From: Girardia tigrina
Taxonomy: Eukaryota
DNA length: 49,709 nt
Reading direction: 5' to 3'
Assembly: GCA_001938485.1 (NCBI GenBank)
Contig: MQRK01239110.1
Location: 35,460 to 85,168 of the forward strand
Shown: in pieces, positions 1,871 to 49,709 of the stretch
Layout: every line of letters starts with the position of its first letter
Position numbering within the stretch: position 1 is the first letter of the stretch
Notes under the pieces: generated by a model
Told to the model about the DNA's origin: nothing
Databases searched by the model: none
Seen by the model: only the letters and a program-made list of their open reading frames with translations
Translations under genes and position numbers: made by a program

Positions 1871-3181
1871 CCAATTTTTTTCTCAATTTCAACATTTATT
1901 AAAAAATGTAATTTTTTAAAATAAAAAATAAATTTATTAAATCATTATTTATTGATGATTATACGGTACTCTGACAGCACAATTAGTAATATTTTTTACA
2001 TATTACAAAAATAACCAACACCATCATTTGTCTTGATACTTCGAGATTCCAACAATATTAAATCTGCAAATATTCCCTCTTCTCGCATTCTAATTCGTGA
2101 TTTAATTCCATTCTTTATTTTTCCATGAGCGTCTTTAATTAGATTTAACATATGAAAATATGACGAAAGAAATTTAAATTCGAAATCATAAATTGATGTT
2201 ATTCTTTGAATATCTTCGCGCATTTGGATTCTTGCACTGTCAAATATTAAACACGCTCGAGAAATTTGAGCTACATCCCTTAAATAGATACACAATTCAT
2301 TAAAATACTCTGAAAAAATCACTGCATTTACAGTTCAGTCGCTTACTGTTTTTCAAAAACGCATTCCATTAATTACCATGCTCACCAGTAATGTGACCGA
2401 TCTTCCTCTTACTGTTGGAACGCTCACAAATGCACACGTTCCCTTTCTCGATCTAGCTTGAATTCGCTTCAGATGAAGGTTAAATGATGATTCATCAGCA
2501 AAAATAACTCAAGAAAAGTCGTTAAAATAATTATTTATCAGAGAAAATATTCTTTTCGAAGTTGCATTTTCTCTGGTAAATTTACAACATCAAATTCTTT
2601 ATGCGTCATTTTCATTGTAATCTCCACTTTTTGGAAACCCTTGTAGATTGCTGAGAGCGAAATCAAGAAATTTTCGATTTGATATCTCTCCTATAAAACG
2701 TTTTTAATTTCTCTGAGTGTTAAATGAGGATTTTCGGAAATAATGTCTTCTACAAAATTCAATACTTCTTCAGTAAGAACAGTAGATTTACTTCCAACTC
2801 TTTTCTGCTATTAGATTGCTCCGATTTTTTCATAATTTCTTATTATAGTTCTTGCAGGACTATAATTTAATTCCAAAGAAGTCGCTGCTTCTTTTATTGA
2901 CTGGCCTAGATAAAATACATTTCTAACAAGACTTTGCCTTTTCTCATTAGAAATTTTAGCATAACTTGTTTCATTTTGTGTTTTGAGATTTTCGATATTT
3001 TGAGATTCGTTCATTGAAAATGTAATTTTTATACGTTTAAATATTTAAAAAGAGCGAGAAAAAATGCACCATACAAACGAACAACACGTTACAGTCGTCA
3101 AATACAATATCGTTTATTATTTTATTTTCTAAACAAATGTTGAAATTGAAAAACAAAATGTTGAAATTGAGAGAAAAATGG
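1871..3181 (-). mobile_element. Degenerate IS630/Tc1-type (DD34E) transposon in an unc5 intron
   Basis: ~27-bp TIRs (CCAATTTTTTTCTCAATTTCAACATTT vs CCATTTTTCTCTCAATTTCAACATTT) with TA on both sides. Broken ORF from 3014 to ~1996 has an HTH N-terminus, IFADESSFNLH, VPTVRGRSVTL and IFDSARI, with the E position 34 aa later mutated to K. Confidence 0.85.
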
Positions 3182-4233: not shown

Positions 4234-4928
4234 CAAATTTGTTAAGTTCATAAAAGCTTCAATTTTTTACTACATCCCAGATCTGCAAGTTTCTCGAAAG
4301 TACTAAAAGTATTTAAAGACTACATAAAAGTTTAATAACGAAGTTTGTAAAAAATGTAAAATGCGTACTTTTATGATTTTATCTTTACCTATCGGATTTG
4401 GGGATATAGTTATATATTACTCTAAAAATAATACAAGATCATTTGAAAAAAAATCTGTTTCCAAGTTTATTTTCAATTAAAATCCCTTCAAAAGTCAAAT
4501 TTATTGCCATGATTGTCAATATTTACATTTCAAAATCGGAATTTTTTCTTTAATATTTGTTCTTTAATGTCGATTTTGTTTATTCTAATTATTTTTCCTT
4601 TATAGATTCGCTAACCCGTTCAATGTCTATCTTTTGTAAACTTTGTTCATTAAACTATTATTAGTATTAGTATTTATCAATTTTCATTGGAAAAACATTG
4701 TTATAAAGTTTCGAAGGTCTTACTTTCGCATTCAGTTTTTGAACATTGTTCCACTTCTTTAATATATTCTTTACAGTTTTCTTTATCATTGCAAGTTGCG
4801 GTTCGACTCTTTTTACAATTGCTATCACAAGTCGACCAGGCCGACCATACAGTCGATGGATAGTTATTTAGCGAATCTAAAATTTAAAAGCTTTTATCAC
4901 ACTTTTAATTTTATTAGCAGTGCATTAC

Positions 4929-5103
4929 CCTGTATCTTTACCACCGCTACAGGAGAGTATCTTATTTCATCAAGGCTCGTTGCAATACAACTATAGTTGC
5001 CGACATCAGATAGAACTGTATTTTCAATGATCAGTTGGTGTTCTTCGATAATTTTAATTCTATTATTGTTGTACAATTTTGTTTTGCCTTTTATCCATTG
5101 AAT
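4929..5103 (-). CDS. unc5: UNC5-like exon 4, remainder of Ig2
   Basis: Follows a 48-nt GT-AG intron (5104-5151). Encodes IQWIKG...QLIIENTVLSDVGNYSCIA...RYSPVAVVKIQ with the Ig W and DxGxYxC motifs; ends CAG G|gtaatg (phase 1). Confidence 0.85.
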
Positions 5104-5151
5104 CTGTATAATGAGAATCTCAAAAAAAAATAACAAACTTCAACTATTTAC

Positions 5152-5255
5152 CTTTGCTTTTGGTTTACTTTCTGGAGGAACACATGTTAAAATTAATGAT
5201 TCGCCTTTCCTTAATGTTTTTGATTGGGGATATTTCTTGAATTTAGCTTTGAAAT
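5152..5255 (-). CDS. unc5: UNC5-like exon 3, start of Ig2
   Basis: ttttttctag acceptor and AAG|gtaaat donor; 104 nt. (Y)FKAKFKKYPQSKTLRKGESLILTCVPPESKPKAK resembles UNC5 YLRKNFEQEP....LEQ...L.CRPPEG.P.AE. Confidence 0.85.
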
Positions 5256-6810
5256 CTAGAAAAAATGGATTAATTAATTATAATATGTTATGTTGACAAA
5301 TTTACACTCTTCATTTGCTTAAAGACCGAAAACTGTGTATAAAGTTTTTCTTGCGTAACAAAATGTTTAACCAATGTTTACACCATGATATTCTTACCCC
5401 TCCATCACCGTCATAATAAAAGTATTAATTCTAGGTATTTTATTAAAATAAAATATTTTGTAATACTTAATTAACGTATTTCATTCTAACTCGATATATT
5501 ACAAATCCCTTATAGAATAATGTATAAAGCTCAAGGTTTATGTATTTTGAATTGGGTCCTACAGTTGTAATTATTACTTCCCCAAATGGTAACTTAAGAA
5601 CTCTTAATCTTAAGTACTCTTAGAGAATTACCGTGTGATAGAAGCACCCAACTAATTATGGGCTCTGCAAATATGACTTTCCATATCCTAAATTGCAAAC
5701 CCTCATATTCTGCTACTACTGAATGGTGTTTCAGTAATGGAAGCTTTTTGGCACTTTATCCTAAAGATGGAATGTCAGCCAATCTCGTTTCCCATGAATA
5801 CTTCTTGGAAGTATGCTCAACTGGCTAACACAGCTATCCCCTTTTGATTTTATGATGTGTTACATTTTTAAAGCTTAGGAAATTCGTTCTTCTAACTGCA
5901 TTTGATGCTGTAACAAATGCTGACGGATACTAAATGGAAAATCTTTCTTATCTTCTGGCATCAGATTTTTTCTAAAAATTTATTTACTGAATCAATTTTT
6001 GTCTTTTCCAAAGAAAGCATAAGACAATGCAAAGGTTAAGGCGTGTTACATTTTTCAGTCCATTAAAAAGTGCTCAAGTTTGTTCAATGTTATTTCTTTT
6101 CATTGTAATTTCAATGAGACCATTTAGTTTTTATTTACTTCTTGATTATTAAAAATGTCTATCTTTAGGGGTAGCTCAACCATTTCAGGCCACTTACTGT
6201 TTAATAATCTTAAACAATATTCAACACAATTTACAATATTTTATTAGATTAAGTTTTGTAATTTAATTAAGTATGATAAATACAGACAAGTTTTATTTTT
6301 ATAAGAAAGAAAAAGTTAATACAAAAAAATTATTTAAAGTGATTAAATAAAATTAAGCCGCTAAGAAATTATTGTCCCTTTTGTCACTAAGTCTTTTAAT
6401 TCATAACTACTAAATCAAAAAAAAATTTATATCCATTCTTTATGCTGACAGAACTCTATTTTGTCAAGAGAATTTTTTGTTATTTGTTGTAGAAGGGAAA
6501 ATCACTATTACATTTATTAATATTATTAATATTTATTAATATTTGATTATCTTTATTTTTTGCGTAATATAAAATACTTGTAATTTATAAGTACATATTT
6601 TTCATTTAATATTGTTCAGGAACTCCAATGGGACCGTTTTTTCCCAATTCTGAGACCACAAAAAGTTTGTTTTGATCAATTTTTCACATAATCATTTATT
6701 CTCATCGAAAAGGATTGTGTGTGTGCAATGAGTAAAAAAAATGGAAAAAATTTGAAGATATTCACAATAATGGTTGATAAAATGTAGTTTGTTCGTAGAA
6801 AACATCTATA

Positions 6811-8159
6811 TTGGGTTGAGGAATAAGTTCCCGCCGTTTTTTGAAAAATTAAAATTTTATTTTTTAACAAAAAAGTTACTACAAATTAATCACAAATATA
6901 ATCTCCGCCATTGTTCACGACTTCTTCCCAACGTTAAACGAGTTTTTCAATGCCTCTTTGGTATAAATCGCCCGGTCTTGGCTCGAAGAATTCAGCCAAC
7001 CAAACTTGCAGTTCTCCATCATTGTTGAACGAAGCACCACGCAAAACGTTAGAAAGCGAACGGAAAAGATGAAAATCAGATGGAGCCAAGTCAGGTGAAT
7101 ACGGAGGGTGTGGTAATACTTCCCAACCAAGCGTTTGAATGGCTTCTTTTGTCATTCTGGCAATATGAGGACGTGCATTGTCGTGTTGCAAAATAACGCC
7201 ATGTTGTCGATCCGGATGTTTTTGTCTTATAGCGGCGTTGAGTCTATGCAGCTGTTAAACATAAAGTTCTGCATTCACTGTTTGGTTTCGAGGAAGCAAT
7301 TCATAATGAATAATCTCTTCCCAACCCCACCAAACGCATAGCATTGTCTTTCGTGGATGAAGATCCTGTTTTGCTCGCGGTGTCGATTGTTCTTCTCCGC
7401 TACGCCATTCTTTGTGCTGTTTCATGTTGACGTACAGACACCATTTTTCATCACCCGTTACAATTCGATAAAGAAATTGTTGCTTATGACCGTGAGCTTT
7501 GTGCTGTATACGGAGAAGGTGCTATAGCTGATAGAACCGCTCGTGATTGGTTCGCAAAATTTAAAATGAGGGGCAAGCAAACTCGCCGAAATTGTGGATC
7601 GCTGGTTTTTTTTCGGTCAAAAGAATTGGGACCCAAGCTCCCATTTTTTGAACTTTTCCCATTGATTTCAGGTGGTTCACGACAGTTTTTTTATCACAAT
7701 CCATTTGTTCCGCCAATTCTTTAGTGGTTTGACGCGCGTCTTCATGCAAAAATTTGTTCAAACGCTCTTCATCGAATTCATTTGGTCGTCCTGAACGAGG
7801 TACATCCTTGAGGTCAAAATTGCCAATTTTAAATTTTGCGAACCAATCACGAGCGGTTCTATCAGCTATAGCACCTTCTCCGTATACAGCACAAAGCTCT
7901 CGGACAGCGTCTGCGGCTTTGTCGCCTCGATTATACGCAAACAATAGATGGTGTCGGAAATGCTCATTTTTGTCAACTTGACACTCCATTTCAATGGTCT
8001 AAAAATTGACAAAATTAATCTGAATAAAAAAACAAAATACACCATTTTTAGAGCAAAACAATAGCTTTCAAATAACATTACATTACATCAAAAAATTTGA
8101 TTTAAATATTAAATTGATTAAAAATTCAAAAAACGGTGGCAACTTATTCCTCAACCTAA
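6811..8159 (-). mobile_element. Full-length mariner (DD34D) with inactivated transposase
   Basis: 35-bp TIRs (TTGGGTTGAGGAATAAGTTCCCGCCGTTTTTTGAA, few mismatches) and TA TSDs. ORF 7989 to 6886 has WVP, IVTGDEKW, HDNARPH and YSPDLAPSD motifs, interrupted by frameshifts, a stop and a 74-bp inverted insertion. Confidence 0.95.
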
Positions 8160-8676
8160 TATATAAAATAATTTGTTTGTTATAAAAAAAATTGTGAAAA
8201 TTAACAAAAAATTAAGTTTTCAGCCAAACTGTCGTATCGCACTGAATGATGTACAATATTTTTTGCCACATTTTTTACTAATTAACTGGTTGATAACAGT
8301 AAATATATTTACAATAATTGGCCTTACTCAAGCTTGTTTTCATGCGGTTCTTTTTTATACGATTTTATATTTGTACAATTATTTTATATTGCTAATCAAA
8401 AATAGTTTTTGAAACAAAAAAACGGAATAAAAAACAATAAAGTATATTTGTATATTATAATAAAAATGTGTAAAAAAATTGAATTTTTTGAAGATTTATA
8501 ATTTAAAAGAAAAAGAATTAATTTTAAAGTAAATAAGTAATTTGAAAAGTCATTTTTGATTAATGTAATAATGAAAAAGAAACATTATTTTTTAAAATAA
8601 CTAAAAAATATTATTTCTATTTTTTGTTAAATATTCAAAATATTTCTTGTTAAAAAAGCAATAGATAGAATAAAGT

Positions 8677-9435
8677 ATGGATGTTCGTGTCATGAACAAA
8701 TCATTGGTTTGATCCTTCACAATAACTTACTTGATTTTTACCAAAGTTGACTTTAAGGAGAAGCAGCACGAACAAAAAAAACAAAGTAAGGAAATGACGG
8801 ACGAGTCGTCAGAGGACATTTGACGTAAAAATGCACATTTAACAAAACAACTACGTTTTGAAGTACAGCGAGTCCTCGCACTCGACGAGAAGATGATCAC
8901 GAAAGACATAGTTAAACCCGTTCACGAGTTAATTCCTCAACCTCTGTATGTTTCGCATATATTAATAATGAAAGTGTCATTAAGAAAATAAATAATGACC
9001 AAATGGATTTTGTGTACTGAGCTTGCAATGCTCTTTATTTCGCAGATGAACGAACTAGAAATAATATGTATTTTACAACACGTTGTCAAAAGAGAATGAT
9101 TCAATATTATCAACTCTGATAGCGAAATCATCAATGGAAGCTTTGTATCTCTACTGAAAACAGAAAAGAACAAACATGATAACTTTTCCTTCAAATTCAA
9201 GCTTGAGCTATGTTTAATTCTTGCTTGCCATACTACCAATAATTCGGAACATGCTATGTCTGATCAGGATCAGAACAAATCATTCAATTGCCATTGTAAA
9301 CAGCCGGATTGTATATTGCTATAGCTTGAATTCTCGACAACGATAATTACATTAATCTGAGTCAGAAACTTTAATTTTCCTGAAGTGCAGACATGCAAAT
9401 ACATTTTTAACAGGTACTTTGAGCTTTTAAAATGA
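8677..9435 (+). mobile_element. Degenerate Helitron Rep/helicase N-terminal fragment
   Basis: From 9000 the frame reads QMDFVY*ACNALYFADERTRNNMYFTTRCQKRMIQ, matching the Helitron zinc-finger-like motif M...C..C.A..F..E....F..CC..G.I. An R/E/D-rich segment lies upstream. Boundaries are approximate. Confidence 0.5.
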
Positions 9436-11002
9436 CGAAATCTTACATATAAAATTTTCCCAAATATACTTATATTTGCATTTATAATAGCTGTAAAATA
9501 TATGCTTTTCCGGAAAAAATATCAACTCAAATTACAAATTTCCTTATCTTTATATTCTTGACCTAATGACACATCTAGAGCTTAAAAGAATAAAAGGAAG
9601 TTAAGAAACTTTTATTAGAGTAATGTGGCAATTCAGCAACTAATACATGTCAAGGATAGACGTTTTACAACGTTAAAAATTCAGTTAGGTAGATCATTAT
9701 TTGGTCATAGAAAGTTGAATGTTACGTTGTCAATGACATAGTCATTGCAATCTCTTAATATTCATTTTTCTGTAAATATTTTACTAACAAAAAATATCGT
9801 TTATAAAGTTCTTGGTTGAAATTATTCTTCAGTAAGTTGTATGAAGATCAAGCACAATTCTTAATGGCCGAAAATATTAGTCGTCCTTAAAAAATTGGTG
9901 TTTTGGTTTTATCATTCAAAAACTCAAAATATGTAAACTTCCAGTTGCAACTATTTTCATTATTACTGTTAACAGTATCGACACAATTACTATGCAAATA
10001 TTTATTACTATCACATTTAGACTCACCACAACTCTCGGAAGTTCTTTCACTATTTGTCGTCATTTTAGTTAGTGTTATTTCTGATTTTTTTAATAATGAT
10101 TATTCGAATAAATTTCCTAACATTTTTTATTATTTTAACTTTAAAATATTTCATAAAATTATAAACAATAAATAACTAATTTTAAAATTATTCAAATCTC
10201 TAAAATGTCTTTAATTAAAATATTGAACATGTTTATTTTAATTGTTGAAAAATATTACTTATATTAGAAATTGTGTTTTTATTTTATTGTTACTTTTTAA
10301 ATTTAAATTTTACCGGATTATTAAATTTTCCTCAATTTTAAAAATGTAAATAGTTTTCGAATGATCAATAATCGCAAATACAATAAAGCACCAAATTTCC
10401 GACTGGGTTGGAGAATCACAAATCCAATTTCAGTACACTCAAATGAGCACATCGCATCCATACACTATGTAATATTTTTCACAATTAAGAAGACCTTAAA
10501 AGATTATATGATTATATTTATACATAAAAATAATTATAATAAAATATATTGTAATTATATTTTCCGATGTAACTGAATAATAACAAACAAAACAAATGCT
10601 TTTTTGTCTAATTGAAACAAAAGTAGAACCTTGCGGAACGTCTTTCGCGTTCATAAAATAAATTGCTTATGGGGACGGAAAGAAATACATTTTAATACTC
10701 TTTATATTACAAATACTCTTTAGGCGGTCACCTGAATATTTTTAGATCCGAATTTCACTAAATATGTTTAAAAAGAAAACATTTCTGTAGATTAGATTTC
10801 ATTTTCTTCTTCTACTTACGTTTTAATTGTATTTTCAATTAAAGATTTATTCACTGTCTTATTCTTTTTAATTTAGATTTTTAATAATATTTTAGTAGGT
10901 TTTCTTACTTTAATTAGAGTTTTTCATTTACATAATTAATCACGTAACTTTTTTGAAAAAGTTAATTAGTTTTATTATTTATTTACAAAAAACGATTCTA
11001 AC

Positions 11003-11413
11003 ATGCTTCTTTGAAAATCCCAGGACGACTGTGAACCTTTTTAGCTAATCTCAAGGCGGGCACTTGGTTCCACGCTTCGCAGACACATGAAAATGTATTG
11101 AACCATTCCACTACTTGTTGATGTGTGATTTCCAAACTGAATTTCCATCTTGTACCTCCAGATTGATCTATTTGGTCAAATTTGTTCATTTTTGTTACTC
11201 GGAGAGTGCTTTCTGAAATTTCTCTGTCCATATAAGAGTAGACCTCTTTGTTACATATGATATTAACATGTGAAACTGGTTCAGCAATACACTCAATTTT
11301 TGCTGGTTTATTTTCGTATACATAATATATACTCTCTGGTTCTTTTATAAATTTTGGGATGCCTTCCAGTTTTGTTTCATTTGGTTTCACAAAATCGATA
11401 TCATCTTCATTTT
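11003..11413 (-). CDS. unc5: UNC5-like exon 2, first Ig-like domain
   Basis: tttttcttttag acceptor and T|gttag donor; 411 nt, phase 1-1. Encodes PKFIKEPESIYYVYENKPAKIECIAEPVSHVNIICNKE...SLEITHQQVVEWF...CVCEAWN...SRPGIFKEA, matching the UNC5 Ig1 pattern (P.F..EP...Y..KNKP..L.C.A.P..I...CN.E...I.V.RQQVE..F..Y.C.C.AW...KS....AY). Confidence 0.85.
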
Positions 11414-11663
11414 CTAAAAGAAAAACATTTATTAATATTGAGTTATAAACGTTCAAAAAATATTTATAAAGGAATTATAAAATTATCTTCGTGTAAATTT
11501 AAAGTATTTTCTTAATTTTTTTTGTTTTAAAACTATTACGATAGATGTAAATCATTCTAAATTAAATCTTTTAGAACCCTCTCAAATTGAAGTCTGTCGT
11601 TCAAATGTAATCTTTTAGAATTTTAATTTTATATATATACACACATATATATATATATATATA

Positions 11664-29259: not shown

Positions 29260-29623
29260 CAGAGCCGTAGTGAGGGCGGTGCGAGCGGTGCAACCGCACC
29301 GGGCGCATGAGCGCCAAAATCTGAAGGGGTGCCAAAATCACAAAATGACCAATTTTGACTGATCAGATCTCTGTAGGCTAATCACTTTATAATAATAATC
29401 ATAGTAGTCTTTTTTGTTTAATGGCAAAGCATCCATGAATTTATCCGAATAAATTGATGTTTTCTTATAGCTAGGCGATGCAAGTTTTAAGCATCAATGC
29501 TGCGTCATAGAGCATGTGAATACAAACGTCTAAAGTCAATTTAATTCTTTTAAGGCATAATTTGTAGTAGTGAATCTTTTTCGCGCTGGGGGCGCCAGAT
29601 TTGAACTTCGCACTACGACTCTG
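29260..29623. mobile_element. hAT-type MITE (364 bp)
   Basis: TIR CAGAGCCGTAGTG / CAGAGTCGTAGTG (12/13); perfect 8-bp TSD AAAACTAC at 29252-29259 and 29624-29631; GC-rich GGCGC subterminal motifs. Confidence 0.9.
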
Positions 29624-33271: not shown

Positions 33272-34286
33272 GGTAAATGGACAGTACGGTCCCAAATCGG
33301 CATGGTGGAACATTACGATCCCCATTATCATTAATTAGCATTACACATATTCCTGAAGGTGTACGTGCATTGAGATGAGTTATCAGACCTGAAGCTGAAG
33401 AATTGTTGGACTCTTTCGATGCAACATATGTAACTGGCCAGTATAGGAACGTCATGAGAAATGGAATACATACATTAAGAAGAATTCCCTCATTATTTCC
33501 ACCAAATATCTGGAATGTTCACGATGTTACTTTAGAGGATGGGGAAAAGACCAATAACCTCGTAGAATGAAATAACAACAAATTTAGAATACTGGTAGGT
33601 ATCGATCACCCTAACATATACCGTTTAATTATAGCTCTTCGAGAATTAGAATCAAATGCTAGGACATTACGTGCACAAACCTTAGCTGGAGCTGAAACTG
33701 CAAGAAAAAGGTCACTAATTGCAGCACGTGTGCAAGAACGTCTCCGAACACTTTGTGAACGTTATGCAGCAGGAGATGTAAATATAATAGATTTTTTACG
33801 CGGCGTCAGCTACAACTTATCTTCGATGAAGAATTAAGGTTCTCAGTATAATAAATTAATTTATACTTGTATTGTAAATATACTGTATATTTACTTTTAT
33901 AATTTGCTTCTTTTTTTAAAAAAATATTTATTTTGACAATTTTAGGACATGAATTTATTTTGTATATATATTTATTGTAATGTAAGTTTTTATTTCTTTA
34001 ATTATTGTTTCTTCTTTTCAGAATATCGACAAGACCCTAAACCAGGTCATCTTTTCTCTAATTATTGAAATAATTATAAATTAAACTGATTATTTTTTTA
34101 ATTAAGGAACAGAGTCCTGGGAAAAACAGCAAATAAAATTACTATATTCATAACGTTTTATTATATATTTCATGTCTGATTACATTACAGTGTAAAAATA
34201 TATGGGGGACCGTAATGTCCCACCATGCCGATTTGGGACCGTACTGTCCGGGGCCGTAATGTCCGGGACCGTACTGTCCTAGATTC
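33272..34286 (+). mobile_element. Internally deleted Mutator-like element (MULE)
   Basis: 9-bp TSD TATTTATTA (33263-33271, 34287-34295); 44-bp inverted subterminal block (42/44) built from 15-bp GGGACCGTA(A/C)TGTCC units. 33340-33837 encodes a MULE C-terminus (FPPNIWNV...TNNLVE*NNNKF...VG..HPNIY.LI..L) with two TGA stops. Confidence 0.9.
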
Positions 34287-35261: not shown

Positions 35262-35799
35262 TTAAGAAAATTATTTGCAAGGAAATATGTAGAAGACTTT
35301 TACTTTATTGTTTGAGTCAGAAATGTTCAGAAGATTGCAAAAGTACAGTTTGAGCTAGGAATTGGAGCAAAGATTGTGATTAATTTTCTCTTATACTTGC
35401 TAATAAAAAGTCGATCATAAACTGGTTCAAAGTCGATTTTTGTCAGATTGTTCTCGTTGATCATCAGGACAACTTCTCTCTTTATTTGTCTCAATTGTAC
35501 TATCCCTGCGGAAAATTCTCCACTAATTGAATGTAGCTGTTTCTATTCCCCTACAATACCTCTTGGTTAGGATGTACTCTTCCGTTTTTATTATCTTCAG
35601 TGCTCGATTACTTGATAAAATTATAGCCTTCCAGATAGGTCTAATATTCCAGGTTCCACTCTCATTTTTCTGAGTTTGTACCCAGTTTCGCCGGAACCTG
35701 TCAGAAGATTATTGACTACGAGTCCTGCAAGACTTCTTGTTTGGGTTTTGGTAGCTTTTGTAAATCCACAGACCAGATTTCTGGCAATTTAAGTTTCGT

Positions 35800-36990
35800 C
35801 TTCTTATTTTCATAGAGAATGTGACTCTAGTTCACAGGAAACACCACGAGGACGTAAGTAGACATTGTATCTCCTCTCCAATGTACAAGTTTTTTCACCC
35901 ATGACAATAAAATTTATGAATCAGATTCGCTCGTAATCATAAAATCAGTTTTGATCTATTTGAGAGAAAGCTTTGAACTTTGAAAGTCATTGAAACCACT
36001 TTGACACTACTTATAGTCTTACAGATACTCTTTTTAAATTCTTTAATAATTTCAGTATATGGTATTTTGATTATCTGTGTGTGTTATTTAATGTTTTCTT
36101 TCTTTAATTCTTTTTTAACCCGTGTTTATCCAATATAACCTTTATTTTTTTCATTTTTTTGTTTGTATACATGTAGGCTCTCAAGCGTCTTCTAAGAATA
36201 TTTAAACCATGATTTGCGATTAAAAACTTAGAAGACAAATTCCAAAATCTGTGAACTAACTCTATATATTTTTTTCTCACAAAAACTCTGTAGTGTTGTG
36301 TAGAGAAATGTATCACTTGTCTTTCTGTATAATTCAGTTATCTATTTTCCATTCATCCTAGTGACAAGAATGTCAAGAAAAGGAAGTCAGTTATTAACTT
36401 CCGATTCTGTAGTGAATTCAATATTAATATGAATACCATTCAAGATTCTTAAAAATGTTTCTATCAGATATTGGTTTCTAAAAACAAAAAGGATGTAATT
36501 TACATATCTCTTGTATAGCATAGGTTTTTCCTTATGGTATGTATCGATTTTATACCCAAGAGACGTCATACAAAATGATGCCAGAGTTGGTGCTGATGGG
36601 GAACCATTTGTGACTCCATCTTTTTTAATCTACCATTCATCACTCAAAAGAAATAGCACATTTTTAGTAGAAAATTTAAGAAATTCTTTCTCGTTATCTT
36701 TGATCATTGCCTCATTAGAATGGATTAAAGGAAGAATGCATTGAAGAACACAAACAAATAATCAAAATACTATATTATGAAGGATTTAAAGAATTTAAAG
36801 AATATTTTGGAGAAATATGAGCGACAATACTGGGAATCATTATTAATAAGACACTAAAAACCCATTAATATACATTGAAAATTCAAAAAAAAATCATTCT
36901 TTAAAACTAGCACTAAAACTTACAAAATATTAAATTAAAATTGCTGATGTTGGAATACGAAATTCCAAAACATGTTCAATAATCACGTTC
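35800..36990 (-). mobile_element. Degenerate Penelope-like retroelement (RT on minus, inverted EN tail/pLTR on plus)
   Basis: Minus strand: KDGVTNGSPSAPTLA, YKRYVNYI (YVDD relic), LNGIHINIEFTTESEVNN*LPFLDILVTR...TELYRK. Plus strand 36819-36869: ERQYWESLLIRH*KPI, the GIY-YIG C-terminal motif. Boundaries are approximate. Confidence 0.75.
36940..36980 (+). ncRNA. Decayed minimal type I hammerhead ribozyme (PLE-type)
   Basis: ATTG-CTGATG(t)-tGGAAT acgaa ATTCC-(a)AAA-CATG-TT-CAAT. Stem I, stem II and the palindromic stem III are present, with two core substitutions. Confidence 0.5.
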
Positions 36991-40887: not shown

Positions 40888-42536
40888 TCAAAACAACACC
40901 AAATGATCATTTTTAGTAGATATAGGGAAAAAATCGGTTATTTTTGACTGACGAGATATGTTACTCGTAGCCACAGCCTTCTCTACAATCTCCAAGGGTT
41001 GTAAAACGTCCAGTCCTCGCTCGGCACAGTAGCGTCGAAGTGTAGTCAAGCTTTCTAACATAGATGCAAGGGTCACGGGTGGAACGTTTTCCTCCATATC
41101 GTCACCATCTGATTGCTCATCCTCAACACAGGAGCCATGACGAATCTACAGAAACAAAGAATTACGACATCATACAATATTTGACACATGCTGTTACAGT
41201 ATTTACCAACCTTTTCGAGAATTTCAGAATCCTGAAGGATACCTTCCGTTGACACAAGTTCGTCCACTCCCAAGAAGTCCTCCAAGCAGCCGTCCATTCC
41301 AAAGTTGTGTGCGAGGAATGTGAAAATGTTCCTAGTCTCATTTAGAGTGGATTCAGATGTTCCAGTAGCAGAATTATCAATTGTTTCTGGAAATGGGTCG
41401 TGTTGGAAACCAGCATGATGAAAACAATTGACGATTGTCTGTGTATCCACTTCACTCCAAGCATGAGACGAAAGTTGAACACAGTCAAAGATTGTGATGC
41501 CAAACGACTGAAGATCCTTTTTTGCTTCCACCCAAAGGAGAAGACGGCGAAGAATTTTGGATCTGTATATCGTCTTGAAGGTCTTTATAATACCTTGATC
41601 TAGAGGTTGGATATGGATGGTTGTTGCGGGAGGTAGGAAAGCAAGCTCAATGGCATGCAGGTTTGTGACTGCTAAGGCCTTGTGGCTAGATACATTATCC
41701 ACAATTAATAGCACTTTTCTTCCAGGTAGCATCATATCGGCGTCAAATTTGCTCAACCACTGTTTCCATGTCTCAGAATCCATCCACGCTTTTCTGTTAC
41801 TGCAATATGTCACGGGGAGTGATTCCTTTTTGATGTTTTTGAAGCAGCGTGGTTTCTTAGAGTTGCCAATGAGAAGCAATTTTCTTTTGTCTGTTCCTGT
41901 CATATTCGTGCAGAACAGTATGGTAACTCTGCGTTTGCTAATTTTTCCACCAATGCATTTTTCACCTTTCAGAGCAAGTGTTTGGTTGGGGAGACATTGG
42001 TAAAACAAACTAGTTTCATCAGCGTTGTAGATGTCGTTTTCATTGTAAAGCTGCAGGTAGGTCGGGAATACATTTTGTCTCCATGCGATAGCAGCGTCTT
42101 CATTAGCTCCCATAGCTTCTCCAGACACAGTAAGGGACGTCAATCCATGTCTCTTTTTGAAGCGATTCAAGAAGCCATTGCTTGCTTTAAAGTCTGGAAA
42201 TTTCAAATCACATGCGAATTCCCTCGCTTTCTCTACAAGAATCACACCAGAGATTGGAATATTGAACGCCCGCTGCTGGGTAAACCATGTTTCTAAAGCA
42301 TGCTCAACATCTTCGACTGGACTTGAGCGNNNNNNNNNNNNNNNNNNNNNNNNNNNNNNNNNNNNNNNNNNNNNNNNNNNNNNNNNNNNNNNNNNNNNNN
42401 NNNNNNNNNNNNNNNNNNNNNNNNNNNNNNNNNNNNNNNNTTCATTTTTCTTTATCCCCTTGTCCACATCTTCTAATATAGAGAATTTCTCTTTCAAGTC
42501 TAATGCTTTTCTTTTACGTGGTCGACTTTGGTCCAT
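40888..42536 (-). CDS. Tigger (TIGD4/6-like) transposase, two exons: 42536-41211 and 41145-40888
   Basis: MDQSRPRKRKALDL start; CENP-B-type HTH (FKASNGFLNRFKKRH); YNADET, IVDN and QPLDQGII give DD32D. A 65-nt GT-AG intron joins an acidic tail and the QSKITDFF PIP box. Ns at 42330-42440 hide part of the N-terminus. Confidence 0.85.
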
Positions 42537-45500
42537 TGCAATCAGAAAATAATGCACTCGTTTAACACAACATCTCTTAAATAATCGAGACAGGCTAACC
42601 AGACAAACCCGTAGACACAGCAAAGAAAACCTATCCTACCCTCCTGTCTCAATTAAGAAACATGAGCTAAGCCATAACAACAGTCTNNNNNNNNNNNNNN
42701 NNNNNNNNNNNNNNNNNNNCATTAGCTTCGATTATTGCTTTCAGAAAAAAATGAAATGGTATTTGTGCTTGCCTTGAAACCCGTATTTTAAGGAACTGTA
42801 GCCAAGCCTGCAAGCCATCGTTACGATATCAATCAACCTACATTTTATCAAATGAGTACAGACAACGATGGCTCGGCCATAACAACAGTTTAATACCCAC
42901 TCACCCACATCCATCAATGAAACATGAACTCGCGGATTCAGTTGTGATAATTGGATTAAGAAAAGGAAATTGTAATTTGTGTTCGCGCTGGAAAACCTTA
43001 TTTTGAGGGACAGTATCCAAGCTTCGGTTTATCGTAATACAAATAACCCACCTTTTTCAAATGANNNNNNNNNNNNNNNNNNNNNNNNNNNNNNNNNNNN
43101 NNNNNNNNNNNNNNATTTGTGTTCGCGCTGGAAAACCTTATTTTGAGGGACAGTATCCAAGCTTCGGTTTATCGTAATACAAATAACCCACCTTTTTCAA
43201 ATGAGAATAGAGAGCGATGGCACGCCACAACAACAATCTATCACTCACTAATCCACTCAAACCTTATTCTAATTGAACAAGATATTTTTGTCTCTGTCAG
43301 TTGACGACAGACACTGACGTCTCTATTACTGAAAACTCACACACCCAGAAATGCAATTTATTCATATGGTTGCTTCCATATGAGCAGCATTGACTTNNNN
43401 NNNNNNNNNNNNNNNNNNNNNNNNNNNNNNNNNNNNNNNNNNNNNNNNNNNNNNNNNNNNNNNNNNNNNNNTTCGTTATAACGGGAGGGAAAATACATTG
43501 AAACATGTAGGATGCGGCAGGGACTACAAAATTCCTTCGTTATAACGAGAATTTCGTTATAACGGTGTTCGTTATAACGGGGTTCCACTGTATTTTATTA
43601 TTATTATTATTATTATTATTTTATTAGCTTATTTGCTTATGTTTAAAAGATTTAAAATTCGTTCAATAGTTATTACAAATGGGATTTTGTTACTGTTAAA
43701 AAAATATTCAAGTCGTTGAAAAGTATTAAAAGACGTATTATTTACCATTATTTTTCTTAAAAAAAATTTTTTTTTGAAGTTTAGGGGCCCTTTGCTAAGG
43801 GGTCCGTGTTGTAAAAAAGGTTTTAATGCACGATTATAAAGATAATTTTTAAGGGACTTTTTTGTTTTTAATTTTTGTTCCGTTTTTTTCATTTATTAAT
43901 TATAAAATTCATATATAATTAAAAAAATTTAATTTAAATTAATATTCGATTAAAATTTGATTAATTTAAAGGAAATTGTTTTAAAATTATTAGGAAACAC
44001 TTGTTCGGGAAAATGATATTATTTCATTAAAAACATTAAAATATTAATTAAAGCAATTAATAAATAAGTGTGGGAAATTATGCTTTTTTAATAAAGAAAT
44101 TGATAGAATGTCGAAGATATCGAATAACAAAGTGGTCGATGTTACATCACCGGTTACGTAAATATCCCACAAGAATTTTAGTCATTTTAAGTAAAATCAG
44201 AGTTATAAAATCTTTTCATTTTTTAATAATTTATTAATAATTTTAATTTTCTTTTAATATTTCATTATTTGATCGTTAAGAAAATAATCCATATTTTATT
44301 TTTAATTTTTTTTACAATTAAAATTAAATTTTTGATAGTGAAATAAAGAAGATTAAAATCATTTGAAAAAATAAAACCGATCCAAATTATTTAAAATTGG
44401 AATAAAAAGAAAAAGAAATATAAAAAAATATTAAATTCTATTATTATTTTATTTGTTTTTATAAATCATTACTTAAAAGGAAATTTTAAACTTAATTTTC
44501 AAAAAAAAATCCTATAACAAAATATATTAATTATTTATTTTAAACATACTTTAATTATCGGAAATTATCATCGCTGCTTTAATGTTATGAAAGTATAAAG
44601 TTATAAAAAATAATAAAAAACATACAATAATATAAAACTACTGCTAAAGTTCTTGTATTCCCTAATGGGAGATAATCTCTAGTATCTTCTTCCTTGTTTA
44701 TCTTTTTTTAAAAAATCTTTAAAGGGAATAACTGCCATTTTTTTGCTCATTAGTCTCACTTTTGAGTAAAGTGGAAATAATTGTAGATTGTAAAAATGCA
44801 AAACTCGGGAGTTTTTTATTATTCATGCTATAGAAAATATAGAAATGTAAGTGCTTTTAAAGTATTTTGTTAATAAATTTTAATTATACGACAGAGAAAA
44901 CAAAATAAAAGAATGTAAATCATCGAACAAGAAAAGAAGTTGATAATAAATCATCAACTGTTCGTAGATTTTGAAAACGTCTTGAATTAACGAACTGTTG
45001 ATATATAATTAGAAATAAGATAATTTTAATATTATATATTTTTTTATAAATTATATCAGATAATAATTTTAAAGAAATTTACTAAGTTTCATAAGATTTT
45101 TCACTGATCTTAAATAAAATCTCTCTGATTTTTTTGATTTTTTATCTCCATAATCAATATTTCTAAGTTTTAAAAAAATATTTTCGTCCCTTTTAATTAC
45201 CAAAATATTTAGTAAACGTGAGTACCACTTGAGAGTATGGCCTACCTTAACTTTTCCACTTTAGTTTACCGTGTACTTACAAATATTTGGCTTAAAATAT
45301 TGGGTTTTTGAACTGAAATAAGGCCGATTACTGACATTTTTATGTGCAATGCTATGTCAAAACACTATTATATTAATCTTGAAATGAAATTTTGGAAAAA
45401 TTTAACGATTCATTTTAAAAAATAACCTGCGACTGGATATTTAGGTTTCAAGGGGTACGAAATCTTTATGCTGATATAAATCAATCGACAAGAGATGTAT

Positions 45501-46796
45501 GATATAAAACTACTCATTGTTATAAAAATTTTTGGATAGTTATTTTAACACATTGTACTCGGATAACGTATTAATACGTTTTTAGCAAATTAATGCTAGA
45601 GAGCGGATCACGTATTTATACGTTTTTGATAGATTGTTAGTGGAGCGCGGGTCACGTTAAAATACGGGTTCCAATATACTTGAGTTTTCGCTATATAGCG
45701 TCTGTAGGGTTGTAGCCATGTAGGTAAAAACCTTTTGAGAACAATAGATGGGGTGTACGATGGGTACCGAGGTAGTGTTATTCATCACAAAAATAGTCGA
45801 AGATAACGGTACATGTAACGGTCTACATGCAACACTAAGACGAAAAATAACAATTTTTTAGTTTATTTCACTACTCTTTGGTGGTCGGACGTTTCTAAAA
45901 GCTAAATATCGAGTACACACATATATATATTATATATTATATAGATATTATATATATATTCCTACTTTATGTGAAGTTCTTCACTAGTTTAACGATGAAG
46001 AATACATTTCTAAATATAATAAAATAAAATGTAATAAAATAAATAATTTGCAAAAAGAATTATTGAAATCAAACAAATATTTTTGAAGTTATCGCAATTT
46101 TTCTAGATGTCTACGTTAGCGCGAAATTAAGCGAAAAATCACCCGTTACCAGCACTAGTACGCGGCCGAAAACTGCCCGATCACACAATGTGTTAATCAT
46201 ACCTTAATCATATTAATTTAAAAGTCCTGAAAGAATCCATAAGAAATGTATTTGATATTTCTTAGTAACACAATGACTAAAAGTAAATAATGTGTTTCAT
46301 GAAATTAAGACTAAAGCTGGTAAATATGTAGAACTGTAGATCAAACGTCATATAAGCACTTAAGGATGTTTATGTTAACCAAGAAGTATAAAAAAACATT
46401 ATGTGTTAAATATATTCACGAATTATACAAACAAGAATAGAATGGATAGTAGTAATTCAGGAGAGCCGTTTGATCGATGGCTTTCCTTTTTCCTTTTTAA
46501 CTAGAGACAGAATTCCAGTTACGACGTTGTAATTACCATTATATAAAGGAAAAAAATATATTAATTTCAAAAACAAATGCAACTTTACATATAATATTTC
46601 AAGTTCAATTTTGGTTTTATAAAAGTCAACTTGGAAGCAGTCAGATTCAGTTTGGAATTAAACCCTTTCGCTTCTTTTGATGAGTGAGACATTTGTGTTG
46701 TTTTCAAAGCCAAAATATTAACGAGCCATTTTCTTCACTTCGAAATTTATAATAAATAGTCTTCGTTAATATAAGTATATAAAGTTATATATATAT

Positions 46797-47778
46797 AATG
46801 CGTCTCAAATTATTGAGAACGGTTGTATTTCCGAGAATGTTGCATGAGTGCGATCTTGCTTGCCTGTTCAGTATTTTGTTTGTACAGTATTTTATATCAA
46901 CATAATTGATAATGCTCTTCGACCATCAGCTGATTTGTGGTTCCCACAGGGGCATTGGGTCTTCTAACAGGACAACGCTCCCTGCCACGCATCCATAAAG
47001 ACAAGTCAGCACCTCGACAACTACGGCATCCATTGCATGGAATGGCCGCCAAATTCATGTGACATGAACCCCATAGAAAATCTTTGGACACATTTAAAGC
47101 AACAGGTTTACCAGAGGCCAACTGCAAATACAGAGGAACTCAGTGCACGCATTAAGCACATTTGGAAAATTGATGCCTATTTACAGACTCTCTGTAAAGC
47201 ACTCGTTAAATCCATGCCACGTAGACTATAGGCTTATATTCGCAATCGTGGTTCTGCTGTACACAGTTACTGATTAAGTGTCTTTCTTTTTATTCTCAAT
47301 ATAGTGATCCTTTGATCTTATAAGGTTTAAACTTGAGGCTTTTTAGGAGGTCTGAGACGCTTATGGCTTTAAAAGGCACTCCTCCCATGCGGGGATTTAC
47401 ATGCCTAAGCTCCACCGGCGAACCACCATCACAACACACCTCACCAAGATTAGAAACCTTGGATCATTGAGATGTAATCGATGACGCGACGGCAGGGACA
47501 CTACTCCCTGCAGCCTGACACTCAGTTTTTGAAGCAGGGCCTTCAAAATATTGGTTTGCTAGTCCAATATCGATACATCGGCTGCCGACCTTTCAAACAG
47601 CAAATGGCTCAAATCAGGACGCTTTAGCCTAGAGAAGAGAGCTCTAGTTTCGCAGGGATACCACGCGGAGGTACGTCCAATCTGGCCTTGCACTCAGAGA
47701 TCCCTGTCTCAAAGTAGTACTTTTCAGTAATAAGCATGCATTTTTATCACCGTTCTGAGTAATATATAAACGCTTTGT
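46797..47778 (+). mobile_element. Internally deleted Tc1 (DD34E) carrying a nested non-coding insert
   Basis: Degenerate TIRs (AATGCGTCTCAAATTATTGAGAACGGT vs AAAGCGTTTATATATTACTCAGAACGGT) beside TA runs. 46893-47272 reads WVF*QDNAPCH...EWPPNSCDMNPIENLW...LVKSMPRRL*AYI..RG...Y*. Confidence 0.8.
47617..47706 (-). ncRNA. Candidate HDV-like self-cleaving ribozyme
   Basis: In order on the minus strand: P1 CAGGGAU, J1/2 hairpin, P2 GGACGU, P3 ACC, L3 UCCGCGU, P3' GGU, P1' AUCCCUG, CGAAA, P4 CUAGAG/CUCUAG, J4/2 GCUAA(A), P2' GCGUCC. Confidence 0.7.
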
Positions 47779-48939
47779 ATATATATATATATCACCTACT
47801 TCTATAAAAACATGTAGAACAATTTATAAAAACTTAAAATATAAAAATTGAAAAAAAATAATCAAAAATTCTGAAATAACTAAGACAAAAACGTATAACT
47901 AAGAAACTACAAAAAGAGAAAATTTATTTCCAGAAATAACAAGTGATGTAACTTTTTTCGAAAAATTCGATCCGCAATAGTTTTTTCAGCTCATCAGTCT
48001 ATCAGTGGACAATCTTTTTTATATTGAATATCAAATTATGCAAAAGGAATCACTTCAATCATAAAACTCTTAGAATAGTTTCGTAAAATTGAGTTCATCC
48101 CTGTACCTCGAAGGGTTATTAAACTTAGTACTATCCAACAATCGAATTCGTCTTCAGACTAAAACAAATCTATTGTTGTTTGTACGGAAATTTTAACGTT
48201 ATTACTTTTTGTTTTAAAAAACCTTCTACGAATTTCTTCTATATCCTTTTTATAGTAATTTTTTCAACTTTCTTCTTCTTTCTTCTAATTCTTTGTTCTC
48301 TTCCCATTTGTAATTAATTGATAATATATTAGTATTTAAATTAACTTTGGTTATTTATTATTATACACAGCTAAGGAGCCTTATAAAATTAATTAACGTA
48401 TTGTCAAGTCGCTTAAACAGCTATTCGGAAAAGAAACTTTAGTTTAGTATATTATGAGCATACTTTTCAGAGAGGTATTCAATAATATAAGTAAAGAACA
48501 AACTGAATGGACTTCATGTGCATATAAAAATAAATAAATCGGAGGTCAAAGGATTATTGAAAATCATTCCAGAATTTATCAGAATCATATTGCAACTTTT
48601 ATCATTTCTGATTTTTATTTTTATCATTAGAAATTATATTTTAAATTGTTGGGACATTTATATTAATTTTAACTTATTTTTCTTGAATGAATATTTATGT
48701 GAAACAAGATTTCTCCAGCTTTCGCTTTCAGAGTTTTTTAGCTCTTAGTTTTAAAATATTTCCTCTGACAGTATTATACAGAATTAAAAGTAAAACAATT
48801 GATCAACATTTATACGTTAATTCCCAAATACACAAATAATAATTGTCAACATACCTTTCTTTAAAGACGACATAACTCTAAAATTGAATTTCAGAACATT
48901 CTGAATGATCTATTTGACATCTTTTTTGTCTGTGAGCAA

Positions 48940-49510
48940 AAGTACCCGGTTGTTAGATTAATTCATTCGCATCATCTTTCGGGCCGAAGCCGTCCTCAAC
49001 AAGTGCCCTAGTTTTCACGGGGTTCTTTACTCACGGCATCCACCGAACCCTTCATTTGGGTGATCGTTTCCGCCAAGCCCGACACTTCTACTCATCACCT
49101 TATCAACTCATCATCAGAGGATAATTCTTCCTCCCATGATGTGTTGTTTTCATCCTCAGACGAGTCTGCAACCCGCATCCTATAGGGGTAGGAGACTTGT
49201 GCTTCATCGTCAGATGATTCGTCATCCTGGACTTGATCTTTTTTACCCCCTGATGCACTCGATTCCTAAAGTTGTATGACTGTAAAAGTGCATCCAGGGT
49301 GACTGGATCAAAATCCTTGGTGTCCTCACGCTGTCCATGCTCATAATCTCTTTCTTCCATCATGAACATCGATTCTGAGGTTCTTCTATGTCCTCTATCA
49401 CTGTATCTTATTATCACTATCTTTTCTGAGTCCTACTAAGGATCACACATTCCCGGTGATACGTCCTTTGTGATGCCGAGTATTTAACATTTTATACAGG
49501 ACAGCCAATT
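48940..49510 (-). other. GC-richer degenerate coding-like segment of unknown (probably mobile-element) origin
   Basis: Clear compositional shift; 104-aa ORF; a second frame gives the acidic DQVQDDESSDDEAQ...SSEDENNTSWEEELSSDDE; TATAAAA upstream near 49490. No family recognised. Confidence 0.3.
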
Positions 49511-49599
49511 GCAATTCGTCGTATCACCTAATCAAAGCAATCGTTTTAAACCGTCGAAATAATCATAAATAGTTTTGAATAAGTTCTTAACAGTATATA

Positions 49600-49709
49600 C
49601 AGGGTGCGGCAGCTATTTGAGAACACGTAATATAGACACCATATCTTTTTGTGTGTTATAATTACATAATTTTATTTTTGCTGGTAGACATGGCAGAAGC
49701 TACTCTTAC
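49600..49709. mobile_element. Left terminus of a Tc1/mariner-superfamily element running out of the window
   Basis: TATA|CAGGGTGCGGCAG start, typical of CAGGGTG-ended DD37D/DD41D-type TIRs. Confidence 0.45.

Follow-up and report, generated by a model that had tools for sequence, protein, structure and literature searches.

A candidate family of short non-autonomous retroelements with an HDV-like ribozyme at the 5' end in the flatworm Girardia tigrina

Introduction

Ribozyme-headed non-autonomous retroelements are already known, and the flatworm family described here is a further example. They include the R2 SIDEs (PMC3414825) and the NARTc and SIDER elements (PMC4035085, PMC5814959), and some genomes are described as holding hundreds of HDV-like copies whose downstream sequence is conserved while the upstream sequence differs (PMC6765202). 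NARTc, RIME and SIDER, non-autonomous derivatives of L1Tc/ingi in trypanosomatids, are short, noncoding and dispersed, with an HDV-like ribozyme as their exact 5' end (PMC3185411, PMC4035085, PMC5814959), and the flatworm family shares these features. The L1Tc ribozyme, L1TcRz, cleaves 5' of a C (PMC3185411), as is predicted here, and NARTc, RIME and SIDER have target-site duplications (TSDs) of similar length (PMC4035085). The flatworm family differs from them, however, in its lack of poly(A), in a longer J1/2 that extends P2 and in its animal host, and its P1.1 is two pairs where that of L1TcRz is one (PMC3185411).

The R2 SIDEs and R2/R1 hybrid SIDEs of Drosophila likewise combine a ribozyme head with a 3' end that serves another element's machinery for target-primed reverse transcription (TPRT) (PMC3414825), and their P3/L3 core is nearly identical to that of the flatworm element. 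They are called rare in that source and lie in rDNA, whereas the flatworm family is high-copy, dispersed, outside rDNA and has C1 in place of G1. Within flatworms, the Schistosoma RTE elements SR3 and Perere-3 offer 10-12-bp TSDs, a short-repeat tail and a TSD that adjoins the ribozyme cleavage site (PMC1291365, PMC8501958); the ribozymes of Perere-3, though, are twister variants whose P1 borrows from the TSD (PMC8501958), while the flatworm family has a self-contained HDV-like fold and no ORF. The bipartite derivatives of RTE and Vingi (Bov-A, RTESINE, WALLSI3 and the Vingi-1_EE derivatives) also lack an ORF and join conserved 5' and 3' parts through a variable middle (PMC5786205 section 23). 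Their ends are homologous to LINEs, whereas the flatworm family is set beside them by layout alone.

Here, we analyze a 49,709-nucleotide stretch of Girardia tigrina DNA (contig MQRK01239110.1, positions 35,460 to 85,168 of the forward strand; hereafter, the window), in which a first-pass annotation had proposed an HDV-like ribozyme at the head of a structured insert in a Tc1 relic. No account of the family appears in the literature we searched; Repbase, Webb 2009, Ruminski 2011 and the Dugesia supplements (bioRxiv 10.64898/2025.12.11.693146) are beyond the scope of that search and may list it.

Genomic setting

Most of the window is 20-30% GC. Exons of an unc-5 netrin receptor gene lie at 4725-11474 on the minus strand; for one exon the closest of 10 relatives is 78% identical, and 9 tapeworm and fluke relatives stand at 38-45% identity. 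These relatives mark the host as a flatworm, and the low GC, together with the divergence from the parasitic species, suggests a free-living planarian. The insert at 47.5 kb would be sense to unc-5 if it falls within the transcript of that gene. Several other mobile elements are present. A mariner relic at 6934-7998 on the minus strand (HTH_48, Transposase_1, DDE_3) contains an internal 81-nt inverted duplication at 98% (7487-7567/7826-7906), and at 41073-42635, also on the minus strand, there is a Tigger/pogo-type transposase frame that is nearly intact apart from an N gap and runs to about 520 codons (DDE_1 E=1.8e-40, HTH_Tnp_Tc5). An element of about 970 bp at 33279-34249 is bounded by terminal inverted repeats of 50 nt that are 92% alike; its 88-codon frame had no Pfam match. 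At 42975-43204 an exact 90-nt direct repeat flanks an N gap and is probably an assembly overlap.

Boundaries of the element and its landing site

The copy that we take as reference is the minus-strand insert within an internally deleted Tc1 relic (Table 1). This relic retains a DDE fragment at 46968-47273 (DDE_3 E=3.5e-9) and terminal inverted repeats (TIRs) that are alike in about 21 of 30 columns by hand count, and the insert lies between its stop codon and its right TIR, as originally described. The description of the insert as GC-richer and free of ORFs also holds, since its GC content of 49% compares with 41% and 31% in the flanking Tc1 parts, and its longest stop-free stretch of 53 codons leaves no coding capacity.

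The limits of the insert were drawn from contigs of four public runs (X1, X3, X7 and X9, one per organism code), aligned at 80% likeness; 11 runs contain part of the stretch. Among the 15 of 21 joints listed, empty Tc1 sites are seen as a 47305-47721 joint in 4 X1 contigs and 1 X3 contig, as 47305-47720 in 1 X1 contig, as 47285-47721 in 2 X1 contigs, as 47275-47721 in 1 X1 contig and as 47285-47707 in 1 X7 contig. Because Tc1 copies without the insert exist, and because a 12-mer that is single in the empty site is double in the window, the insert can be fixed at 47306-47706, which replaces the span of 47330-47720 given to it at first. The two 12-bp copies are identical at 10 of 12 positions and constitute the TSD that the first-pass annotation had failed to find; 13 of 4,000 random position pairs were as good at the exact spacing, and 140 of 4,000 with 3 nt of slack. 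The ends of the element, read directly, show no terminal inverted repeat, and this, together with the 12-bp duplication, rules out MITE and Helitron readings.

On the minus strand, the first base of the insert is nucleotide 1 of P1. Among the 24 of 480 loose ends listed, 5 X3 and 5 X7 contigs break off directly behind 47706 with an agreement of 0.53 and 0.56, which indicates unrelated flanks, and one X7 contig ends at 47705. The notion that copies always travel inside this Tc1 is contradicted by these run contigs, in which the flanks of the element are unrelated to one another, and the suggestion that the insert hitch-hikes in a DNA transposon is not supported, given Tc1 copies that lack the insert. 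The reference copy landed once in the Tc1 3' UTR, and Tc1 is its landing site rather than its vehicle.

Table 1. Positions in the window of the element, its predicted ribozyme, the host transposon and two older relatives.
Feature	Position	Strand	Description
Whole element	47306-47706	minus	401 nt, GC 49%, no ORF; from empty-site joints, loose ends and TSD scan
TSD copy next to P1 nucleotide 1	47707-47718		12 bp
TSD copy next to 3' tail	47294-47305		12 bp
HDV-like ribozyme core (P1, P2, P3, L3, P1.1 position, P4, J4/2)	47617-47706	minus	from descriptor, base check and covariance models
Predicted cut	5' of C47706	minus	before P1 nucleotide 1
P1	47706-47700/47659-47653	minus	7/7 Watson-Crick
P2	47678-47673/47622-47617	minus	6 pairs
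P2 extension	47600-47691	minus	47691-47679 (in J1/2) pairs with 47615-47600, 6+3+4 bp
P3	47672-47670/47662-47660	minus	3/3
L3	47669-47663	minus	7 nt
First J1/4 base	47652	minus	C in reference copy, G in family
P4	47647-47642/47634-47629	minus	6/6
J4/2	47628-47623	minus	catalytic-C equivalent C47627
Variable middle with hairpins	47490-47615	minus	lowest depth; internal deletions in other copies
Conserved 3' part	47306-47489	minus	short imperfect 8-nt tandem tail; highest X1 depth
Host Tc1 relic, internally deleted	46796-47777	plus	TIRs ~46796-46825 and ~47748-47777
Relative C	35501-35875	minus	375 nt; second match of covariance model, 35798-35873, E~0.09
Relative B	5505-5842	minus	338 nt, in unc-5 intron, sense to gene; E 0.37

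The ribozyme core

A base-by-base check of the reference copy found every helix of the original proposal at the positions claimed (P1, P2, P3 and P4, along with L3, J4/2 and C47627), and added a P2 extension of 13 further pairs that the proposal had lacked. P2 can also be drawn in an alternative register of a U-A pair, a bulged G and 5 pairs, which is the register of the metagenomic relatives described below. Judged against the element sizes given for HDV-like ribozymes in PMC3774820 (section 16), the reference copy has the strand order P1-P2-P3-L3-P3'-P1'-P4-P4'-J4/2-P2' of the class, and its parts agree with the limits of 6-7 bp for P1, at least 5 bp for P2, 3 bp for P3 and 7 nt for L3.

How often such an arrangement arises by chance was gauged with an HDV descriptor composed post hoc, from a sequence already seen. 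When the 391-nt insert was dinucleotide-shuffled 20,000 times, the descriptor matched 2 of the shuffles with a strict L3 and 49 with a loose L3; across shuffles of the whole window (60 each), there were on average 0.05 strict and 1.15 loose matches per window. The real window contains 1 strict match, the reference copy, and 2 loose ones. The loose match at 29414 is what the chance rate predicts. Covariance models gave a divided answer: an Rfam search up to E 10 returned only chance-level matches to unrelated families and none to an HDV-like model, whereas custom models built from metagenomic cores had the reference copy as their best match in the window, one at 34.6 bits (E~7e-8) and another at 19.1 bits (E~0.02), scores that are partly circular, as the training set was picked by a pattern from the reference element, so that the motif positions are circular and the P2 and P4 pairs are not. 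Folding of the ribozyme portion by itself, with a folder that does not model pseudoknots, gave z = -0.99. Taken on the sequence as it stands, we consider the HDV-like fold of the reference copy to be real.

The annotation had flagged the C at position 1 as a caveat, and the C is indeed there: the first pair of the reference copy is C1-G37, where a purine at position 1 would be usual. This is not disqualifying, because the active L1TcRz ribozyme cleaves to a C1 end (PMC3185411, Fig. 5 legend), and a purine at this position is therefore not defining.

A second caveat, that P1.1 is one pair at most, is correct for the reference copy but not for the family. P1.1 of HDV-like ribozymes comprises 1 or 2 bp, and the one pair of the reference copy is within that range. 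At 47652, however, the family has G in 97.6-99.5% of depth across four runs (95, 28, 27 and 26 contigs), which provides a GG that pairs with the CC of L3 and thus a two-pair P1.1, so that the C is a mutation of the reference copy. In the minimum free energy (MFE) fold of the reference copy, L3 is paired with the mutated 47652 base in place of P1.1. Since it has lost one P1.1 pair, the reference copy would probably be impaired, and on these sequence grounds it is probably a weak or dead member of a once-active family. Position 47652 is the only variant within the core among the 16 element variants listed; as these come from 40 of 285 variant rows, they do not establish that the rest of the core is invariant.

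Downstream of the ribozyme

Folding of the whole insert gave z = -2.80 for the minus and z = -1.67 for the plus strand. Downstream of the ribozyme the sequence folds more stably than its shuffles (z = -3.32), the 3' 185 nt alone less so (z = -1.38). Among the 16 listed element variants (within 40 of 285 variant rows, so that partners may be among the rest), 12 fall in MFE pairs and the pair is kept in only 4 of these 12, for which reason we do not regard the downstream fold as established. The near-perfect enclosing stem of the first-pass annotation is present as complementarity and lies outside both the MFE and the centroid folds. Two variants on an arm of this stem, at 47475 and 47482, keep G-U pairs by hand check, while several variants break the alternative helix of the MFE, a pattern compatible with a predicted enclosing stem.

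Size and layout of the family

The loose ends at 47706 and the depth profile describe a dispersed, multi-copy family with its 5' end at the predicted ribozyme cleavage site. In X1, word depth summed and set against that of the flank comes to about 1,540 for the core, about 360 for the middle, and about 1,370 and about 2,950 for the 3' part, as compared with 130-240 for the Tc1 body. Relative word depth is a rough guide and not a copy number, and as such it indicates a family that numbers roughly a thousand copies and exceeds Tc1 several-fold, its ends being conserved and its middle variable. The ratio of insert to Tc1 depth is 7.4 in X1, 7.8 in X3, 21.4 in X7 and 15.2 in X9; X3, X7 and X9 are RNA by guess only and were used as contigs, and these ratios carry no inference on expression. 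Internal deletion joints in other copies, at 47515-47587/8 and 47529-47617, bear out the variability of the middle. The 3' tail amounts to about 1.6 imperfect 8-nt units, with no poly(A), and the conserved 3' part that it ends is the presumed binding site of a partner reverse transcriptase.

A sister subfamily is also visible in the loose ends, with a longer J1/2 and a different sequence after P2'. It is represented on one side by 27 X1, 5 X3 and 6 X7 contigs and on the other by 2 X3 and 7 X9 contigs; its arms could pair to extend P2, but each was read from different contigs and they are unphased. Two of three motifs of this subfamily had no match in the window. At 35736-35752, there is an exact 17-nt match to an X3 loose end of the subfamily (1 of 100 shuffles at 2 mismatches), opposite in orientation to the RNA of relative C, described next; it may represent a hairpin's second arm.

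Older relatives in the window

Two decayed relatives, B and C, were missed by blastn of the element against the window and were found by covariance models and nhmmer. Relative C has 7 of 7 pairs in P1, 7 of 8 in P2 and 2 of 3 in P3, in sequences that differ from those of the reference copy, and has lost the catalytic C. An 11-bp TSD, identical at 9 of 11 positions (35876-35886/35490-35500), adjoins nucleotide 1 of its P1. None of 500 shuffles aligned as well as its head to the reference copy; the body was not significantly alike (19 of 200 shuffles as good, and 257 of 300 for the last 150 nt). Relative C, which shows the same layout at a site of its own while its P1 and P2 differ in sequence, argues for the reading of a ribozyme-headed retroelement. 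It interrupts a YIGET-like motif in a relic (about 36800-35350) that we take to be Penelope-like from its RT-like and GIY-YIG-like motifs; frames near relative C had no Pfam match. A candidate fourth relic on the plus strand at 35600-35800 was rejected, with 143 of 500 shuffles as good.

Relative B aligns end to end with the reference copy (0 of 200 shuffles as good; 3 of 300 for the last 150 nt). It keeps the GG and has 3 of 3 pairs in P3, including a compensatory pair, as well as two compensatory P2 pairs; its decay is evident in P1 (5 of 7 pairs), in two lost P2 pairs and in the loss of the catalytic C. We do not claim a TSD for it, as the candidate (9 of 11, lying 11 nt from P1) is a product of a wide search. 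Compensatory pairs thus occur in P1 and P2 of relative C and in P2 and P3 of relative B, within two decayed relatives only. The 3' ends of the three copies (47306-47313, 5505-5511 and 35501-35508, all minus) are within a base of GGAT, and each resembles the 5' strand of its own P1, at 6/8 in the reference copy, 6/7 in B and 5/8 in C.

Metagenomic relatives of the core

Exact patterns from the element had no match in JGI metagenomes, prokaryote genomes or viral contigs. A degenerate pattern of the P3/L3/J4/2 core, scanned in the JGI metagenomes, gave at least 122 matches in at least 120 loci (L001-L120). Among the matches listed, 78 distinct P1' sequences occur, and for 52 of them a perfect 7-bp P1 was present 13-40 nt upstream; with P1' swapped, the mean was 1.9, and the core can therefore be taken to mark true HDV-like folds. 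In 13 cores of equal spacing P1, P2 and P4 covary, with 90% of cells paired and 0 of 500 shuffles as good, P1 pairing being one of the criteria by which these 13 were selected. These loci share the P3/L3/J4/2 core, the topology and the P2 register with the flatworm element, and the 13-sequence model finds the reference copy. They differ from it in having no blastn similarity to the element, a J1/2 mostly of about 4 nt and, for 47 of the 52 distinct relatives among the matches listed, G1; C1-G37 occurs in 1 of these 52, the family of L101 and L102.

Of the 79 long ORFs near metagenomic cores, 31 were scanned, yielding 2 RTs and not thereby a partner for the flatworm element. One locus, L019, has a ribozyme near 3001-3052 (minus) about 1 kb upstream of a same-strand RT frame (ORF 2-1981 minus) and is likely a ribozyme-headed LINE. 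In L050 and L054, the HDV-like core lies just past PIF1 helicase frames, which suggests a link to Helitron-like elements. L018 and L089 have two HDV-like cores each, about 870 and about 310 nt apart, and in L018 the downstream sequence is repeated, as in a tandem or circular unit.

Origin of the element and alternative explanations

We think it very probable that the insert is a short non-autonomous non-LTR retroelement, SIDE- or NARTc-like, with the HDV-like ribozyme as its 5' end. The first-pass annotation offered this reading beside that of an orphan retrotransposon 5' UTR; the TSD, the 5' end at the predicted cleavage site, the many dispersed copies and the lack of an ORF speak for the former, and the latter is dismissed because the element has a conserved 3' part of its own and a duplication on both sides. 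If this is correct, then transcription of the element would either read through from the host DNA around it or start at a putative internal Pol II promoter. The ribozyme would fold as a nested double pseudoknot and cut 5' of C47706, as the chemistry of its family and the genomic 5' ends suggest, and the freed RNA would have a 5'-OH and retain the whole ribozyme. The endonuclease/reverse transcriptase of an autonomous LINE would presumably bind the conserved 3' part and insert a copy by target-primed reverse transcription, which would leave an 11-12-bp duplication, as observed at two loci. A TSD that adjoins the cleavage site is the mark of an inserted cleaved RNA in the logic used for Perere-3 (PMC8501958), and R2, R4, L1Tc and RTE are reported to be cut where the element begins, at the 5' junction (PMC3774820 section 17).

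The partner LINE is most likely of the RTE clade, which we hold to be moderately probable, with a non-specific R2, an R4 or another element a considerably smaller prospect and Ingi/Vingi the smallest of these. An RTE partner is favored by the length of the TSD, by a short-repeat tail without poly(A) and by the abundance of RTE in flatworms, and also because ORF-less bipartite derivatives are reported, in PMC5786205 (section 23), only for RTE, Ingi, Vingi and R2. RTE-clade elements have a short-repeat 3' tail instead of poly(A) and TSDs of about 10-20 bp (PMC2887409, PMC1291365), among them Schistosoma SR3 with its 10-12-bp TSDs and short-repeat tail (PMC1291365), and Dugesia genomes show an RTE expansion (bioRxiv 10.64898/2025.12.11.693146). 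The flatworm element has the RTE-type lack of poly(A) and TSDs of 11-12 bp, while its tail is short, with some 1.6 imperfect units of 8 nt. The search for a partner LINE found none, and two RT queries gave no tblastn match in the window.

An unlikely alternative would make the element an Ingi/Vingi-type derivative, the animal counterpart of NARTc, RIME and SIDER, whose head may double as an internal Pol II promoter like Pr77. It would share the C at position 1 with L1TcRz (PMC3185411), TSDs of 7-11 nt are the screen applied to that clade (PMC4035085), and both Ingi and Vingi produce bipartite derivatives (PMC5786205 section 23). The element has no 3' poly(A) tract, though, unlike L1Tc and the derivatives of Ingi/L1Tc, and the active sites of such ribozymes converge across lineages (PMC3774820 section 19), so that the head does not place the clade. 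Somewhat less likely again is a SIDE of a restriction-like-endonuclease element without target specificity, of R2NS-like, R4 or NeSL type. The P3/L3 core is one base off the conserved R2 motif and Schmidtea mediterranea has a non-specific R2 family (PMC5035012), and R2 does make SIDEs (PMC3414825). Yet the upstream cleavage reported for planarian R2 is in 28S rRNA, while the three copies here sit in a Tc1, in a Penelope-like relic and in an intron, with no rRNA match in 45000-49709 that would represent the 28S rDNA target of an R2 SIDE, and target bases at R2 junctions are usually lost rather than duplicated (PMC3774820 section 17). A classical SINE with a tRNA, 5S or 7SL head is rejected, as there is no tRNA, no Rfam match and no Pol III box without a mismatch.

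Circular or tandem RNA would be the basis of an HDV-type retrozyme, in which the last 7-8 nt repeat the first 7-8 nt as the enzyme runs round the junction. First and last bases do agree at 6/8 in the reference copy, 6/7 in B and 5/8 in C, and the element is structured and about 400 nt long, but no head-to-tail joint is found among the 15 of 21 joint rows and 12 of 14 between-letter rows listed from the contigs, the flanks at 47706 are mutually unrelated, and the X1 tail consensus resembles a tandem of 8 nt, with a poorer fit to P1; we regard this as very improbable. A broader version, itself quite improbable, sees a ribozyme-headed SINE class without a single LINE parent, composed of a conserved C1 HDV-like head in which P2 is extended, middles that can be exchanged, and a tail repeating the substrate strand of P1. 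Its RNA would be able to recut or circularize and so spread through flatworms in the manner of an HDV-type retrozyme; of its roughly one thousand copies many would lie in introns, and an intact one there would cut the pre-mRNA of the host. That the structured RNA spreads as cargo inside a DNA transposon is already largely refuted and hardly credible: the insert does lie between the Tc1 stop codon and right TIR, but empty Tc1 sites, a TSD of its own, about 7 times the Tc1 depth in X1 and unrelated flanks all stand against it. It is just as hard to credit a SINE-like repeat that looks HDV-like by chance. The lack of an Rfam match and the post hoc descriptor would be expected of such a repeat, but not a boundary on nucleotide 1 of P1 at two independent loci and in 10 contigs, a family base at 47652 that completes P1.1, or the compensatory changes in B and C.

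Implications

A ribozyme-headed non-autonomous retroelement in this flatworm would add a high-copy animal example to a small set, in a phylum whose one studied RTE element has a twister rather than an HDV-like ribozyme. The family could show how a ribozyme functions when its first pair is C1-G37 and its P2 is extended. A family this large is also a natural mutational scan that bears on whether cleavage is required for copying, through the 5' ends at nucleotide 1 and the activity that old copies have lost. Copies that lie in introns in sense orientation, as B does, pose in turn the question of whether host pre-mRNA is cut.
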